From NCBI GenBank assembly GCA_040767805.1, contig JAXGNU010000005.1, positions 72,152 to 136,151 on the forward strand: a stretch of DNA of 64,000 bases. The letters run 5' to 3'. A program made the position numbers and the translations under genes. Positions within the stretch are counted from its first letter, which is position 1. The number at the start of each line of letters is the position of its first letter. The stretch is from Thermovirgaceae bacterium (GTDB lineage Bacteria; Synergistota; Synergistia; Synergistales; Thermovirgaceae). This document shows, piece by piece, positions 14,434 to 19,825 of this stretch. The notes under the pieces were generated by a model, which was given only the letters and a program-made list of their open reading frames with translations, searched no databases and had not been told where the DNA came from.

Positions 14434-15069
14434 CTAGAGCCCTTCCTGGACGGCCCTCTCCCAGGCGCTCCCGAGGTGGCAGGCCTCGCCCAGGACGAGG
14501 ACCTCCAGCCCCCGGGGCGTCTCCTCCAGGAGGGTGATGCTGCCGTTCCCGAGGCGGAACCTCCAGAAGCTGTCCAAGGGCGCGTCGAAGACCCGGCAGA
14601 GGAGGACCTTGAGGACCGCGTCGTGGGAGAAGAGGGCCAGGGTGTCCCCCGGGCCCGCCAGGATCTCCCTGAAGGCCCCCCATGCCCGGCGGGAGACCCC
14701 GTGGAGGTTCTCCCCCCCCGGCATGGTCACCTCCTCCGGCCTGGAGTGCCAGAGGGAGAGCATCCCCGGCCACAGGCTTTCCACTTCCCCGGCGGTGTGC
14801 CCCTCCCAGAGACCATGGTCTATTTCGATCAAGCCCGGGTGGGTCTCAATACCTAACCCAAGGAGGGAGGCCGCGGCCTCCGCCGTCCCGGCGGCGCGGG
14901 AGAGGGGGCTCGACACCACCCTGTCCACGGAAGAACGCAGGAGCGCCCCCGCGGCGGAGCGGGCCTGCCCCCTGCCCAGGTCGTTCAGGGGGATGTCCCT
15001 CCTGCCCTGGAAGCGCCCTTCCCGGTTCCAGTCCGTCTCGCCGTGCCTTACCAGGAAGATCCGCCTCAT
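14434..15069 (-). CDS. histidine phosphatase, probable PspA-type phosphoserine phosphatase
   Basis: LVRHGETDWN motif; last gene of the serA operon. Confidence 0.78.
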   Translation of the reverse strand: MRRIFLVRHGETDWNREGRFQGRRDIPLNDLGRGQARSAAGALLRSSVDRVVSSPLSRAAGTAEAAASLLGLGIETHPGLIEIDHGLWEGHTAGEVESLWPGMLSLWHSRPEEVTMPGGENLHGVSRRAWGAFREILAGPGDTLALFSHDAVLKVLLCRVFDAPLDSFWRFRLGNGSITLLEETPRGLEVLVLGEACHLGSAWERAVQEGL

Positions 15070-16716
15070 CTAGAGGTCCTCCGTAAAGCGGACCTTCACC
15101 GCCCAGAGCAGGTCCACATCCTTTTTCAGTTCCTCCAGGACGGGCATGGGGACGTCGTCGTCGATCTGCAGGGCCCCCACGGCCAACCCGCTCCCGTTCC
15201 TGCGCCCCAGGGCGAAGTTGGCGATGTTCGTCCCGGCTCTCCCCAGGAGGGTCCCCACCTTCCCGATCACGCCGGGGCGGTCGTGGTTGCTGAAGAGGAG
15301 TACCGTCCCCTCGGGGATGAACTCTATCCAGTAGCCCCCTATGTTGACCACCCTCTGGCGTCCCTCTTCGGTTATCGTCCCCGACACGGTGATGCCCTCC
15401 CGGGAACCGGGCGACAGGAGCTCCAGTTCGACCTGGTTGCGCCAGGTCCCGGGGCCGGTACGGCTCTCCTCGATCCTGATGCCCTTGTCCTCCGCCAGCA
15501 TCGGCGCCGACATGTAGTTCACCTCGGGACCGTGGGAGTATTCCAGGTAGCCCTTGAGCCCAGCCACAGTGAAGGGGGAGAAATGATAGGGTATTTCGAA
15601 GCACACCGGCTCGTCGGCGGGCGAGAAGAGGGGGCCCCGCAGGCTGACCTTCAGCCGCGTAGCCGGCTCCCGCGAGAGGTGCGCCGCCAGGTAACCGAGT
15701 TTGCGGGCCAGCGAAAGGAAGGCCCTGGTGCCCTCGGGGAGGGACTGCTCCACGAAAGGTAAGTTCACGGCGTTCTCGCAGGGTTTCCCCTTGAGGGCGG
15801 CCAGGAGGTTCGAGCAGGCTATGACGGCCACCGCCGACTGGGCCTCCTCGGTGTTGGCCCCGATGTGGGGCGTCAAGACCACCTTCTCACGGATATCATC
15901 GGCAAGCAGGGGGTTGTCGGGCCGCGGGGGTTCGCCGTCGTAGACGTCGATGGCGGCCCCGGCCAGGTGCCCTGAGCGCAGGGCCTCCGCGCAGGCAGCC
16001 TCGTCCACGAGCCCGCCCCTGGCGCAGTTGACCAGGTAGGCTCCCGGCCTGCAGGCTTTTATTGCCTCCCCGTCGATGATACCCCGCGTCTCGGACGTCA
16101 GGGGGACGTGCAGGGTGACCACGTCGGCCAGGGACAGGGCGCCCTTGAGGTCTTCCATCAGGCGGACGCCGGCCCTGTCGGCCTTGGCCTGGGAGACGTA
16201 GGGGTCGTAGGCGGAAACCTCCATGCCGAAAGCCCTGCACCGGGCCGCCACCTGGGTCCCTATCCTGCCCAGCCCGACGATGAGGAGCCTTTTGCCCGAG
16301 AGCTGCCTGCCCAGGAAGCGGCTCCTCTTCCACTCCCCGGAGGTCAGCGATTGAAAGGCCTGGGGTACCTTCCTTACCATGGAGAGCATCACGGCCATGG
16401 TGTGTTCCGTCGCCGCCAAGGTGTTCCCCGTGGGCGCGTTTATGACCACGACGCCCCTGCGGCTAGCTTCGGCCAGGTCGATGTTGTCCAGCCCTACGCC
16501 GGCCCTCGCCGCAGCCCGCAGCCTTTTCGCGGCGTCCAGGATCTCGGGGTCGAGGGGGGTCCCGCTCCGGGTGATCATCCCGTCCACGTCCCCCACCTCC
16601 GCGAGGAGTTCCTCCCGGGAGAGGCCCGTTTTGACGAGCAACTGCACCTCCGGGTCCTGCCGAAGTACATCCAGCCCAGCCTCGGAGATATTTTCCGTTA
16701 CCAGTACCTTCAGCAT
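15070..16716 (-). CDS. serA: D-3-phosphoglycerate dehydrogenase with ASB and ACT domains
   Basis: RAGVGLDNID, GLGRIG, NCARGG and TPHIGANT motifs; C-terminal NHDRPGVIG. ATG at 16716. Confidence 0.93.
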   Translation of the reverse strand: MLKVLVTENISEAGLDVLRQDPEVQLLVKTGLSREELLAEVGDVDGMITRSGTPLDPEILDAAKRLRAAARAGVGLDNIDLAEASRRGVVVINAPTGNTLAATEHTMAVMLSMVRKVPQAFQSLTSGEWKRSRFLGRQLSGKRLLIVGLGRIGTQVAARCRAFGMEVSAYDPYVSQAKADRAGVRLMEDLKGALSLADVVTLHVPLTSETRGIIDGEAIKACRPGAYLVNCARGGLVDEAACAEALRSGHLAGAAIDVYDGEPPRPDNPLLADDIREKVVLTPHIGANTEEAQSAVAVIACSNLLAALKGKPCENAVNLPFVEQSLPEGTRAFLSLARKLGYLAAHLSREPATRLKVSLRGPLFSPADEPVCFEIPYHFSPFTVAGLKGYLEYSHGPEVNYMSAPMLAEDKGIRIEESRTGPGTWRNQVELELLSPGSREGITVSGTITEEGRQRVVNIGGYWIEFIPEGTVLLFSNHDRPGVIGKVGTLLGRAGTNIANFALGRRNGSGLAVGALQIDDDVPMPVLEELKKDVDLLWAVKVRFTEDL

Positions 16717-17861
16717 GACCGATCCCCTTCCCTTTCCCACGTCTTGAAGGCTTTGTCCAGAAAACCGCCCCCCGCGTCGATGCCGCATTCCCTGGCTGCG
16801 CCGAAGACTCCGCCGGCCAGGAGGCATACCTCCGGCCACCCACCGGGGTTGTAGTGGGCGATCCGCAGGGTGCCGCCGCCCCTTCCCTGCCCCTCGGCGA
16901 CGGTGATGCCCATATCTTCGAGGGCCTTCTTCATGGGCCGCTCTTTCCCTGAGGGCACCTCGAGGGCGGTCATGACGGGCGATCGGTACTCCCTTTCCCT
17001 CACGAAAAGTTCGAAACCCATCGCCTCGCAGGCGGCCTCGAAGGAGCGAGCCTTCCTGCGCGTCCTGTCGGCCCAGGCGTCCCATCCGAAGCCCTCGAGA
17101 AGGCGGAGCGACTCGGCCAGTCCGTAAAAGACGCTCACGGGAGGAGTGAAGGGGTTCTGGGGCCTCCCCTTTTTCAGGAATCTCCTGTGGAGGGTCAGGT
17201 CGAAGAAGTATGAGGGGCAGGCCCCCTTGGCGGCCCTTTCCCAACCCCGTTCCGAGAGGTGGACCAGGGCAAGGCCGGGGGGAGCGAGAAGCCCCTTCTG
17301 GGAGCAGGAGGCGAGGCCGTCGATCCCCCACTTCGAGGGGCGGCAGGTCATGGCTCCGAGGGAGCTCACGGCGTCGACCAGCACAAGCGGTCCGTCGGCG
17401 GGGACCTCCGCCAGGAGTTCTTCCAGGGGGTTGACCACGCCCGTGGAAGTCTCGTGGTGGGTGAAAAGTAGTGCATCAGCCCCGGGATATCTTTCCAGGG
17501 CTTCCCTGACGTGCCCTCTCGTGAATCCCTCGCCCCGGGGTGCGTCAAGGGCGTGGATCTTGGCGCCTCTCCTCGATGCGATCTCCCGGAAACGGTCCCC
17601 GAAGGTCCCGCAGGAGAAGGAGATCACCTCGTCGTCGGGCGACAACAGGTTGGCCGTCAGGGTTTCCAGGGCCCCTGTGCCGGAACCCGGAAGGATGACC
17701 ACGGGTTCCTCGACGTCCAGGAGTCTTTCAAGGCGGCCCGTTACTTCCTCCAGCAGGTCGGACCATTCCTCGCTCCGATGGCTGATCATGGGCCCGGCCG
17801 CCGCCCTCCTGACGGAAAAGGGCACGTCCACCGGCCCGGGAGTGTACAGGTATCGCGTCAT
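16710..17861 (-). CDS. class V aminotransferase, probable phosphoserine aminotransferase
   Basis: TPGPV, HETSTGV, DAVSS and SQKGL motifs; coupled to serA. Confidence 0.8.
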   Translation of the reverse strand: MTRYLYTPGPVDVPFSVRRAAAGPMISHRSEEWSDLLEEVTGRLERLLDVEEPVVILPGSGTGALETLTANLLSPDDEVISFSCGTFGDRFREIASRRGAKIHALDAPRGEGFTRGHVREALERYPGADALLFTHHETSTGVVNPLEELLAEVPADGPLVLVDAVSSLGAMTCRPSKWGIDGLASCSQKGLLAPPGLALVHLSERGWERAAKGACPSYFFDLTLHRRFLKKGRPQNPFTPPVSVFYGLAESLRLLEGFGWDAWADRTRRKARSFEAACEAMGFELFVREREYRSPVMTALEVPSGKERPMKKALEDMGITVAEGQGRGGGTLRIAHYNPGGWPEVCLLAGGVFGAARECGIDAGGGFLDKAFKTWEREGDRSC

Positions 17862-17881
17862 GGGATCCCCTCCTCGTAGAT

Positions 17882-17913
17882 AAAAAAGGCCGGGAGAACA
17901 CTTCTCCCGGCCT
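17882..17913 (-). terminator. attenuator terminator in ser operon leader
   Basis: AGGCCGGGAGAA-GTG-TTCTCCCGGCCT followed by TTTTT, about 20 nt before the first start codon. Confidence 0.85.
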
Positions 17914-17957
17914 GTATCTCCCTGAAACGCTGTGTTTTTTCCCCAGTTGTCCTGGGT

Positions 17958-18071
17958 CTACCGCGGTCCTCCCCCTGCCGGCAAAGAGAGGCCTGCCCTT
18001 CCGGGCCAACCGGAAGAGGAGCTGGAAGAAGAGCTACCGGCCTTGCCGACAAAAAGGTAAACCTCGATCAA
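17958..18071 (-). CDS. putative ser operon leader peptide, 37 aa, MIEVYLFVGKAGSSSSSSSSGWPGRAGLSLPAGGGPR
   Basis: TTG start after GGGGAAG. Eight consecutive mixed Ser codons at 18012-18035. Lies between a promoter and a terminator. Confidence 0.75.
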   Translation of the reverse strand: MIEVYLFVGKAGSSSSSSSSGWPGRAGLSLPAGGGPR

Positions 18072-18104
18072 GAGAAAACACTTCCCCGTGAAAACATTGT
18101 CCGA

Positions 18105-18133
18105 TTTATACCACGAGAGCGTTCAAAGGTAAA
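18105..18133 (-). promoter_or_regulatory. sigma70-like promoter of ser operon
   Basis: TTTACC-17 bp-TATAAA with extended TG. Confidence 0.55.
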
Positions 18134-18262
18134 TAGCCGCCCCGGGCCCCGGGCGGCGCCTCTTGTTTGACGTATGCGTCTGCAGCCTCTACGATGATGC
18201 CTCAAATAGACCCTCCAAGGGGCTCGATCTTTAACGGGAAAACGCGAAGGGAGATGTAGAAA

Positions 18263-19825
18263 ATGAGGATAGCCTGTGTCCAGATGGAAGCGCCGGAATT
18301 GGCCGATTTTGAAAAGACTTTTAGCAGGATCCAACGTCTCCTGGATGAGGCCCTCCGGCCCGGCGTCGACCTGGTGGTGTTCCCGGAATGCTCATGGCCG
18401 GCCTACTTCATCGATCCCGCGGAGAAACAGTCCCTCAAGGAGGCCCTGTCGCTCAACGAACGATTGATCGACCATATCAGCAGGAAAGCCAGTGAACACG
18501 CTTCCTACGTGGCTTTCGGGCTGGTGGAGGAAAAGGACGGGAAGCTCGGCAACAATGCCATCCTCGTGGACCCCTCGGGAGAAATAGTCCTCAGGGTGTC
18601 AAAGATGAACCTTTGGCATTTCGACAGGGACCTCTACGAGCCGGGCCGAAGTTTTGACGTGGTCGATTCACCCTTTGGGCGGATCGGCCTCCTGATATGC
18701 GCCGACGCGCGTCTCCCGGAAATCGCCCGGGTGCTCTCCGTGATGGGGGCCGATCTCATCATCGACCCGGCGAACCTCACGGGCTACGCCGCTTCACACC
18801 AGGGCCTGACTAACCCGCAGCTGGATTTCATGCTGCCCGCCAGGGCTTTCGAGAACGGGGTATGGTGGGTCCTCTCAAACAAGTGCGGGATCGAATCGGC
18901 GGCGGTGCCCTACGTGGGCGGCAGCAGGGTGATATCCCCGGAGGGGGTCCTCGTCGCCTCGGCAAGCCCGGACAGGGAAGAAGTCATCTTCGCCGATATA
19001 GACCTGCCGGTGAAAAGGCCCGCGGCCCTTCCGGAAAGGGCGCCGGCGGCGTACGGGGTGCTCACTGAGCCCACCGAGAATCTTCCTGTGACGGGGATCA
19101 CTACCCAACCCGCCATCCCCTCCTGCAATAGCTTTTTCCTGGGAGCCGCCCAGTTCGGGGCCGGTGATGCCGAAGAGTACGTCCTCAAGGCAGGGAAGCA
19201 CCTGGCCGCACTGGGGCGGCTGCATGCGTCCGTCGCGGCCCTCCCCCCGGCCGGCTTTCTTCCCCCCAAGGGGATCCTCCATTTAGCCGAAGCAATAAGG
19301 GAAAGGTATGGAGCGGCGATCGGGGGGATGGTCGTCGCCCTCGCCCACGGCGGGGGTGACGGTGAACCCCTTGGAGTACTTTTCGACGCGGGGAAGATCC
19401 TGGCATCCTCCCGGGGCCTTCCGCCCCTCTCGGGATCGGATGTCATCGGGACGCCCCACGGTAACTTCGCCTTCGTCCACGGCGAGGGGATCGTCCTCCC
19501 CGAATACGCCAGGATCCTGACCCTCCTGGGCGCGGATTTGCTGTTTTCCCTTACGGACACCTTGACGGGGCCTTCCCTTGAGATCGCCAGGACGCGGGCC
19601 TACGAGAACAAGGTCTTCCTGGTGCGCGCCGCCTCCCCCGGTGAGGGCAAGAGGTCCTTCATCTGTGACCCCTACGGGAGGGTCCTCTCCAGTGCCTTCA
19701 TCGGGGTTGAGCAGGTCTTCGGCTGCCAGGCGGAACTCTTGTCGGCGAGGTGCAAAGAGGTCGTCCCGGGCACCGACGTGATAAGAGGCAGGAGACCTTC
19801 CGACTATCGGTCGCTCTGCCGGTAA
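18263..19825 (+). CDS. two-domain carbon-nitrogen hydrolase (nitrilase superfamily)
   Basis: Domain 1 has FPE/K/LICAD triad motifs and ARAFENG. Domain 2 is degenerate (TRAYENK). Confidence 0.85.
   Translation: MRIACVQMEAPELADFEKTFSRIQRLLDEALRPGVDLVVFPECSWPAYFIDPAEKQSLKEALSLNERLIDHISRKASEHASYVAFGLVEEKDGKLGNNAILVDPSGEIVLRVSKMNLWHFDRDLYEPGRSFDVVDSPFGRIGLLICADARLPEIARVLSVMGADLIIDPANLTGYAASHQGLTNPQLDFMLPARAFENGVWWVLSNKCGIESAAVPYVGGSRVISPEGVLVASASPDREEVIFADIDLPVKRPAALPERAPAAYGVLTEPTENLPVTGITTQPAIPSCNSFFLGAAQFGAGDAEEYVLKAGKHLAALGRLHASVAALPPAGFLPPKGILHLAEAIRERYGAAIGGMVVALAHGGGDGEPLGVLFDAGKILASSRGLPPLSGSDVIGTPHGNFAFVHGEGIVLPEYARILTLLGADLLFSLTDTLTGPSLEIARTRAYENKVFLVRAASPGEGKRSFICDPYGRVLSSAFIGVEQVFGCQAELLSARCKEVVPGTDVIRGRRPSDYRSLCR

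Follow-up and report, generated by a model that had tools for sequence, protein, structure and literature searches.

The serine operon and its leader

The window analysed here, a 64,000-nt stretch of DNA to which all positions refer unless another contig is named, belongs to a metagenome-assembled genome of a Thermovirgaceae bacterium (Synergistota; 1.65 Mb in 29 contigs, 80.6% complete), a member of the same family as the cultured genus Thermovirga, and holds a short, serine-rich open reading frame (ORF) that lies with an intrinsic terminator in front of a three-gene operon, leader and operon alike being on the minus strand. The leader ORF (18071..17958) starts with TTG, comprises 37 codons and a TAG stop, encodes the peptide MIEVYLFVGKAGSSSSSSSSGWPGRAGLSLPAGGGPR and is preceded by a purine-rich, Shine-Dalgarno (SD)-like GGGGAAG at 18087..18081. 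Within it stands a run of eight serine codons, AGC TCT TCT TCC AGC TCC TCT TCC (18035..18012), which are the proposed regulatory codons. A spacer of 44 nt separates the ORF from the terminator hairpin, AGGCCGGGAGAA-GUG-UUCUCCCGGCCU followed by a U-tract (17913..17879), the stem of which (17913..17887) has 12 pairs, eight of them G-C, a 3-nt loop and a T-rich tail, with a folding energy of -22.5 kcal/mol; a consensus scan called the same terminator independently. Upstream of the leader, a promoter-like element at 18133..18105 combines a -35 hexamer TTTACC (18133..18128), a 17-nt spacer and a -10 hexamer TATAAA (18110..18105), the last of these as part of an extended -10, TGgTATAAA (18113..18105), with the TG one base 5' of TATAAA. 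At the equivalent promoter position, all 11 close relatives have TGGTATAA or TGATATAA. The putative promoter went uncalled in the consensus scan, because the rule of that scan demands T as the last base of the -10, which here is A.

The first gene of the operon (17861..16710) starts with ATG behind its own SD sequence (GAGGAGGGG) and encodes a class-V aminotransferase (Pfam PF00266). No NCBIfam equivalog scored above its cut-off for this protein, and from the operon context it is probably the phosphoserine aminotransferase. There follow SerA, the D-3-phosphoglycerate dehydrogenase (about 16722..15070, the start being approximate), which carries 2-Hacid_dh, PGDH_inter and ACT domains and matches NCBIfam TIGR01327 with 563 bits (cut-off 454), and a histidine-phosphatase-family protein (15069..14434; PF00300, His_Phos_1), which resembles PspA (NF045917, 131 bits) and alpha-ribazole phosphatase, both at scores below cut-off, and which would serve as the phosphoserine phosphatase. 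By their content, the three genes probably form an operon for the phosphorylated pathway of serine synthesis. The original prediction for this DNA, made from its letters, had named a TTTACC-17-TATAAA promoter, a 37-codon TTG ORF with eight consecutive serine codons of mixed type, and a strong terminator followed by aminotransferase, serA and phosphatase genes; the promoter and its spacing are as it described, the codons are exactly those it wrote down, and the hairpin energy and the Pfam and NCBIfam assignments bear out the remainder.

Directly 5' of the -35 hexamer there is a perfect palindromic hairpin made of G and C only, GCCGCCCGGGGCCCGGGGCGGC, at 18136-18157 (7 pairs, 8-nt loop). It sits between the serine operon and a divergent CN-hydrolase gene on the plus strand (18263..19825), and could be an insulator or a protein-binding site.

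Conservation of the leader across Synergistales

Orthologous aminotransferase loci were taken from 41 related genomes, 31 of which gave a match, and from a titled genome collection, which together provided 50 Synergistales loci and, once five duplicates had been set aside, 45 unique upstream regions. The 42 regions with at least 250 nt of upstream sequence were scored, three being excluded as too short (L004, L010 and L077). As the choice of ORFs by their serine content was to be avoided, every residue was scored in the same manner over all ORFs in the last 300 nt, by its maximum count in any 10-residue window. A short forward-strand ORF with at least five serines in 10 residues is present in 36 of the 42 regions, and one on the reverse strand in two; 50 dinucleotide shuffles of the same regions gave such an ORF in 1.6 regions on average and in 5 at most. 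Residues other than serine showed no enrichment in this test, none of them exceeding two of the 42 regions on the forward strand. Upstream of the same aminotransferase family in outgroup phyla, a Ser-rich ORF was found at 4 of 52 loci.

By a strict rule, a terminator follows the leader ORF in 34 of the 42 regions; it lies 25-70 nt past the leader stop, with the SD sequence of the aminotransferase gene directly after it. The leaders span at least five GTDB families and their peptides form 23 clusters (22 of which were used for composition) that have little in common beyond their richness in serine, as in the examples GCGSCSSDSSSSWRGE, SGSAGWSSSISSASSCGRG and YSSSISSSSLSSGCPSCGC. Serine codon usage in the 22 non-redundant leaders is mixed (TCC 81, TCT 41, TCA 32, TCG 22, AGC 16, AGT 13), and the TCN share of serine codons is 0.86, compared with 0.78 in the downstream genes. 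Alignment of relatives had been put forward as the first check on the window leader, and it bears the idea out: a Ser-rich leader ORF, varying in synonymous codons and in length and followed by a terminator, is conserved across Synergistales.

One related genome (G012) has, in addition to its full locus on contig C71, a second copy of the leader together with the first 114 aminotransferase codons, located at a contig end (G012:C126:3984-4169, L036). This second copy may be a duplication or an assembly artefact.

Reading frame and transcripts of the leader

The reading frame of the leader is constrained among close relatives. When 11 close leaders were aligned (A2), every one of the 22 gap blocks within the ORF had a length divisible by three, as did 31 of the 82 blocks outside it; the 22 blocks trace to only about three distinct indel sites (3, 3 and 6 columns), two of which alter the length of the Ser run. 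The start column holds TTG in five of the sequences, GTG in two and ATG in four. Judged by these patterns of substitution and indels, the frame behaves as a translated one would.

Public sequencing runs were available as contigs, the ends and gaps of which carry no meaning for transcript ends or levels. In one metatranscriptome (X3) the sole contig on this stretch is 152 nt long, matches without a mismatch (17924-18075) and spans the leader only, beginning 4 nt 5' of the TTG and stopping 11 nt short of the terminator stem. Short contigs from two other metatranscriptomes (X2 and X4) fall within the aminotransferase gene, and a contig of a further run that is probably DNA (X1) spans the region. 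Taken as evidence for transcription of the leader, these contigs amount to a faint hint at best. At 18087, inside the SD-like stretch, the X1 contig has T for C (plus-strand letters), which is strain variation, seen in one contig of depth 5.

Alternative RNA helices

RNAalifold predicts for A2 three successive hairpins, termed here hairpin A, hairpin B and the terminator. Hairpin A (18021..17993) pairs the last serine codons and a glycine codon (CUCCUCUUCCGG) with CCGGAAGGGCAG at -14.2 kcal/mol, and in the A2 consensus pairs the last serine codons CUCUUCCGG with CCGGAAGGG. Hairpin B (17994..17966) is formed by GGCCUCUCUUUG and CAGGGGGAGGACC at -15.1 kcal/mol, in the consensus by CCUCUCU and GGGGGAGG. 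Two further segments can enter into competing helices. Region 1 (GUCGGCAAGGCCGG, 18050..18037) lies just 5' of the Ser run, where a ribosome stalled at the first serine codons would cover it, and pairs with region 2 (GCCUCUCUUUGCCGGC, 17992..17977), a segment within the ORF, 12 nt before the stop codon. Region 2 can pair alternatively with region 1, with the 3' strand of hairpin B, as a third way in which it may be occupied, or with the 5' arm of the terminator. When the RNA left free by a stalled ribosome was folded up to a point before the terminator 3' arm, region 2 paired with the terminator 5' arm; once the ribosome had passed, region 2 paired in the RNA behind it with region 1. Folding of the window's own leader with the ribosome stalled at early serine codons also paired the terminator arm with the Ser run itself, through its exposed 3' part.

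The helices formed by regions 1 and 2, by hairpins A and B and by the terminator are preserved in A2. The antiterminator, region 2 with the terminator 5' arm, has 97.7% of cells paired (slid controls 38-68%) and two compensatory pairs. Region 1 with region 2 (columns 58-69 with 119-130; duplex energy -19.9 kcal/mol) has 89% of cells paired and hairpin A 96.7%, each with two compensatory pairs, and the two taken jointly reach 93.1%, with slid controls at 36-64% and four compensatory pairs. Hairpin B (94%) and the terminator (96%) likewise show two compensatory pairs each; jointly they reach 95.2%, with slid controls at 55-65% and four compensatory pairs. One stretch inside the ORF has conserved partners on both sides, just 5' of the Ser run and in the 5' arm of the terminator, and the two helices exclude each other.

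Two pairings had been picked out by eye in the original prediction. The first, GTCGGCAAGGCC with GGCC...TTTGCCGGC, is supported by pairing in the relatives. The second, an antiterminator of GGCCT-CTCTTTG with CAGGGAG-ATAC-AGGCC, stands in part: the GGCCU:AGGCC portion is paired in 91% of cells, the CUCUUUG:CAGGGAG portion in 62%, which is no better than slid controls, and the helix overall in 74% (slid controls 25-64%, three compensatory pairs). A chain of alternating helices of the his type was rejected for the window leader, because the 3' strand of hairpin B and the 5' arm of the terminator are both purine-rich.

Among 34 Synergistales leaders, complementarity between the free segment of the leader and the terminator arm exceeds that of shuffled sequences at p<=0.05 in 16, with a median z of -1.6; the values for E. 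coli thrL, trpL and hisL, used as controls, are -1.9, -2.0 and 0.0. Very strong antiterminator complementarity (z from -3 to -5.8) was found in L068, L071-L075, L078, L079 and L082, and in two of these (L068 and L074) codons near the end of the leader ORF provide an antiterminator of 13-15 bp.

A model for serine-dependent attenuation

The reading we favour, to which we assign a probability of about 0.78 on the strength of sequence comparison, is that the leader is probably a ribosome-mediated transcription attenuator with serine as its regulatory codons, controlling the three-gene operon of the phosphorylated serine pathway. Four features of this class of element are present: a leader ORF with a start and an SD sequence, which is weak in this copy and leads the ORF in relatives too, a run of cognate codons, a terminator before the first gene and, in the consensus, an antiterminator that excludes the terminator. 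In the model we infer, transcription would start a few bases past the -10 hexamer and a ribosome would begin on the 37-codon leader as it emerges. With seryl-tRNA plentiful, the ribosome would pass through the Ser run and region 2 and reach the stop codon, region 2 would then lie beneath the ribosome or pair anew, with region 1 or within hairpin B; the terminator would form, and transcription would end before the aminotransferase gene. With seryl-tRNA scarce, the ribosome would stall in the Ser run and cover both region 1 and hairpin A; the terminator 5' arm would be captured by region 2, or by the 3' part of the Ser run that is left exposed, with read-through into the operon as the result. 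The freed pyrimidine-rich strand would in effect mimic the 3' arm of the terminator. Translation of the ORF, stalling at its serine codons, the helix that prevails in each state and the response to serine are all proposals of this model.

Several observations weigh against it or limit it and are gathered here. The window leader has a weak SD sequence (GGGGAAG) and a TTG start. Six of the 42 scored regions fall below the serine threshold, and one of the loci (L025) is without any leader. Since the relatives are not independent of one another, the comparative counts are descriptive and overstate significance. The conserved helices were derived from the same 11 sequences in which their pairing was counted, which favours those counts. 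The window's own antiterminator complementarity is not significant (z -1.1, p 0.145), hairpin B in the window leader (-15.1 kcal/mol) is more stable than the duplex of region 2 with the terminator arm (-12.8 kcal/mol), and the minimum-energy fold of the window leader in the stalled state retains hairpin B. The duplex of region 1 with region 2 exceeds shuffled sequences in 2 of 34 leaders, in a test that lacks power for the E. coli controls as well.

Folding with a ribosome in place adds further points on this side, along with some in support. The tests with ribosome footprints used E. coli thrL, hisL and trpL as controls. In equilibrium folding with the whole terminator present, the terminator always wins under the footprint masks, though this is expected of classical attenuators too. 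A sequestration test asked instead whether the 5' arm of the terminator is paired before its 3' arm exists. In the first version of this test all three E. coli controls responded (0.4-0.7 in the stalled state and 0.04-0.18 with the ribosome at the stop codon), and stall-dependent sequestration appeared in 1 of the 34 Synergistales leaders, a negative outcome that arose in part because the transcripts included sequence upstream of the likely start site and helices spanning the ribosome were allowed. In the second version transcripts begin nearer the start site and ribosome-spanning helices are forbidden; the medians for the 34 leaders were then 0.73 with the ribosome stalled, 0.41 with it at the stop codon and 0.67 with no ribosome, and the E. 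coli controls gave 0.61-0.67, 0.01-0.30 and 0.06-0.39, respectively. A difference between stalled and stop states of at least 0.2 in the expected direction was found in 21 of the 34 leaders, and one that large in the opposite direction in none; part of this result follows from the design, since the stop state leaves less RNA available. Without a ribosome the arm is sequestered as much as in the stalled state, so that the test does not discriminate between these two. Folding with a constrained footprint, which had been suggested as a check at the outset, lends only partial support, the first model being unfavourable and the second favourable in part by construction.

Alternative explanations

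Among the alternatives, the one that survives best is that the leader is translated and controls the terminator without being a specific sensor of serine, responding instead to general translation or coupling, to the charging of cysteine or glycine tRNAs, or to arrest by the nascent peptide. Composition bears on this directly. In the 22 non-redundant leaders serine makes up 25.8% of residues, 3.4-fold more than in the downstream genes, a figure that is circular in that the ORFs were picked by serine content; cysteine stands at 4.5% (2.6-fold, binomial p 4e-7), glycine at 12.7% (1.4-fold, p 7e-4) and tryptophan at 1.3-fold, which is not significant. Threonine, proline and alanine, whose codons are mutationally as close to those for serine, are depleted. 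The excess of cysteine and glycine fits a sensor of another kind, and so does the want of a clean dependence on serine codons in the folding tests; serine is nonetheless the dominant enrichment and the sole residue enriched in the unselected test, and the genes under control are those that make serine. A peptide stretch conserved in the close subgroup, SGWSGRAGLP(L/V)PAG, might be taken to speak for arrest by the nascent peptide, but it coincides with hairpin A and region 2, so that its conservation can be explained by RNA pairing, and outside the subgroup no peptide motif is common to the leaders. We regard this alternative as unlikely.

A structured RNA that works independently of translation, such as a riboswitch or a leader that binds tRNA or protein, in which pyrimidine-rich strands merely read as serine codons, is less probable again and would in our judgement be surprising. 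It would account for the fact that the last serine codons form one strand of a conserved hairpin, and for a core of about 50 nt that is nearly invariant in close relatives, third codon positions included; CU-rich and GA-rich strands, moreover, permit many pairings. Yet indels in the ORF keep the frame and the start alternates among TTG, GTG and ATG, the enrichment of serine is restricted to the forward frame with SD sequence and start, and across families there is no common sequence or structure, only a Ser-rich ORF with a terminator. The TCA, TCG and AGY codons of the distant leaders would not build the same helix.

Nor does the leader match a known RNA family, the T-box and the serC motif included: there was no Rfam match to it at E<=1 in 17000-19000, and none at gathering score in the whole window. 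His_leader, Thr_leader, Trp_leader, Leu_leader and Phe_leader gave no Rfam match at gathering score in the window, and the element is no sequence relative of these families. Matches to ylbH, ar7 and Antizyme (E 0.5-1) were on the wrong strand or due to chance. A T-box (RF00230) had been suspected from GGGGGAGGACCGCGG and was ruled out, there being no Rfam T-box match. On other contigs of the same genome there are two full-length T-box matches below threshold, at G000:C10:8507-8730 (L149) and G000:C14:5123-5356 (L150), with 80.9 and 65.6 bits against a cut-off of 93; these are probably divergent T-boxes of the lineage.

That the ORF is a gene in its own right, for a small protein or a peptide precursor and with a terminator of its own, and lies before the serine genes incidentally, is very improbable: short Ser/Cys/Gly-rich peptides do exist as natural-product precursors and one metatranscriptome contig covers the leader alone, but what is conserved from genus to genus is the position before the same operon and not the peptide sequence, no maturation genes are nearby (the neighbours are the CN-hydrolase gene on the other strand and the serine genes), and the terminator lies within 25-70 nt of the stop, with the SD sequence of the aminotransferase directly after it.

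Serine, cysteine and glycine codons in the leaders

Serine-dependent attenuation, the reading preferred here, may have a wider input than serine itself. Cysteine and glycine are both made from serine, and as codons for both are enriched in the leaders, a multivalent reading resembling that of the thr leader is possible, the enrichment suggesting that amino acids derived from serine may be sensed by the leader as well. For glycine, the enrichment may reflect the G+C-rich stems instead. If multivalency is real, codons for serine, cysteine and glycine (and perhaps tryptophan) would integrate the charging of the tRNAs for all the amino acids derived from serine.

Other leader-like elements in the same genome

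A scan of the whole genome for short ORFs preceded by an SD sequence, with a window rich in a single residue and a terminator after them, returned 112 rows. Three of these were flagged for serine, and a true Ser run is present in the leader described here only; the other two ORFs have 56 and 68 codons with scattered serines.

Two further cases among those recovered deserve description. At G000:C12:37263-37370 (minus strand, L143) there is a Tyr-rich short ORF, MSSVLRFTRSVRYYAYYSYTYYVGTACWRLTDKDP (...RYYAYYSYTYY...), with a terminator of -21 kcal/mol, directly upstream of the genes for DAHP synthase, prephenate dehydrogenase, DHQ synthase and EPSP synthase, which makes it a candidate tyrosine leader-peptide attenuator. 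On contig C6 of the same genome, at 103853-103939 (L141:254-340) and 109371-109457 (L142:172-258), there are two leader-like ORFs that both end in ...PSWRG; their 3' halves and terminators are nearly identical, while their codon runs differ, being FFGCYFYGYYFYF (Tyr/Phe) in the one and LINIIILL (Ile/Leu) in the other. The genes behind them, one for each leader, encode paralogous, transporter-like membrane proteins with 85% identity to each other, 7-8 hydrophobic segments and no Pfam match. It looks as if regulatory codons had been exchanged on a common attenuator scaffold, and such a pair, with its swapped runs, amounts to a natural experiment on how codon identity sets specificity. A Leu-rich ORF at G000:C5:12452-12520 was dismissed as a chance occurrence, because a 5'-3' exonuclease gene follows it.

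These elements suggest that codon-sensing leaders are a general device of the lineage. A broader proposal, which we hold only tentatively and think somewhat doubtful, is that the Synergistota rely largely on a lineage-specific set of attenuators to sense their supply of amino acids, a set in which codon runs have been swapped on a fixed scaffold and of which the serine element would be the first serine-specific one known and multivalent for serine, cysteine and glycine, perhaps also tryptophan.

Comparison with known systems

No published serine leader peptide or serine attenuator was found in the literature, although subscription-only papers and supplements may hold one, and in this our searches agree with the original prediction, which knew of no well-characterised serine leader for serA operons. 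The attenuator survey of Naville and Gautheret is without the words 'serine', 'serA' and 'serC' in its main text (PMC2965389). A survey of regulons lists leaders for Trp, His, Leu and Thr in the text available, and places serC/serA under a glycine riboswitch in one Clostridium (PMC3766115). Stav et al. (2019) included Thermovirga lienii in their systematic survey of noncoding regions, and the main text of that paper has neither 'serine' nor 'serA' (PMC6429828); its supplement lists NC_016148.1/864750-865110 as 'Unnamed', with function '?', one example and 'Class V aminotransferase' downstream. An exact-pattern look-up of one of our leaders (L014) in the titled genomes, which might have tied it to this region, gave no match. 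The available portions of two successors of that study leave serine unmentioned (PMC8632094; PMC11109978). The RNA-level control of serine biosynthesis met with in this literature is by T-boxes, by the serC motif, whose ligand is unknown, or by a glycine riboswitch. If the present interpretation is correct, leader-peptide attenuation would gain a new amino acid, in an element conserved across one order of a phylum that has been little studied; the mechanism would be seen to arise time and again, and there would be an explanation of how these amino-acid-fermenting anaerobes decide when to make serine.

Some known elements act on the same pathway by other means. In Firmicutes, serine biosynthesis is under T-box control, as in serA of Paenibacillus polymyxa (PMC8002221), and the likeness extends to the pathway, to regulation at the level of RNA and to the use of tRNA-Ser charging together with a terminator; a T-box, however, binds uncharged tRNA directly and without translation, and the present leader has no T-box match. 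The serC leader motif of the alpha-proteobacteria (RF00517), the ligand of which is listed as unknown (PMC3766115), is likewise a conserved 5' leader before serC-serA, but it is a small structured element with no described leader peptide, and it has no match here at E<=1. The survey of Actinobacteria reports in its available text elements for Trp, Cys and Leu only, and cys leaders in which no terminator hairpin was found (PMC1262725); unlike those Cys-codon leaders, the serine leader has a clear intrinsic terminator. The Cys-codon leader ORF of cysS, uORFC-8-2 (PMC8632094), the leaderless poly-Cys ORFs of mycobacteria (bioRxiv 10.1101/834739) and the aromatic uORF-12/13 attenuators (PMC6429828) resemble the present case as non-classical, amino-acid-specific leaders recognised by comparative genomics outside the enterobacterial set, and none of them, as described in the parts of those sources that were available, concerns serine or the Synergistota.

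In its construction the serine leader is most readily compared with the classical attenuators. Like hisL of E. coli and Salmonella (Rfam His_leader, RF00514), it has a short ORF led by an SD sequence, an uninterrupted run of cognate codons (seven His there, eight Ser here), a succession of alternative hairpins and, immediately ahead of the first biosynthetic gene, an intrinsic terminator; it differs in its amino acid, its phylum and its sequence, has no Rfam match and does not reproduce the alternating chain of the his type. With E. coli thrL, a multivalent leader with codons both for its end product and for an amino acid derived from that product (Thr and Ile), it shares the presence of other codons, here those for cysteine and glycine, enriched alongside the main run, and the footprint test is similar in direction in the two, although multivalency here is a matter of statistical enrichment only. 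Cases of leader-peptide attenuation are also known for Phe and for Ile/Val. Set beside all of these, the mechanism, which sequence comparison supports well, appears to be the textbook one, and what seems to be new is the amino acid, the phylum and possibly the multivalency.

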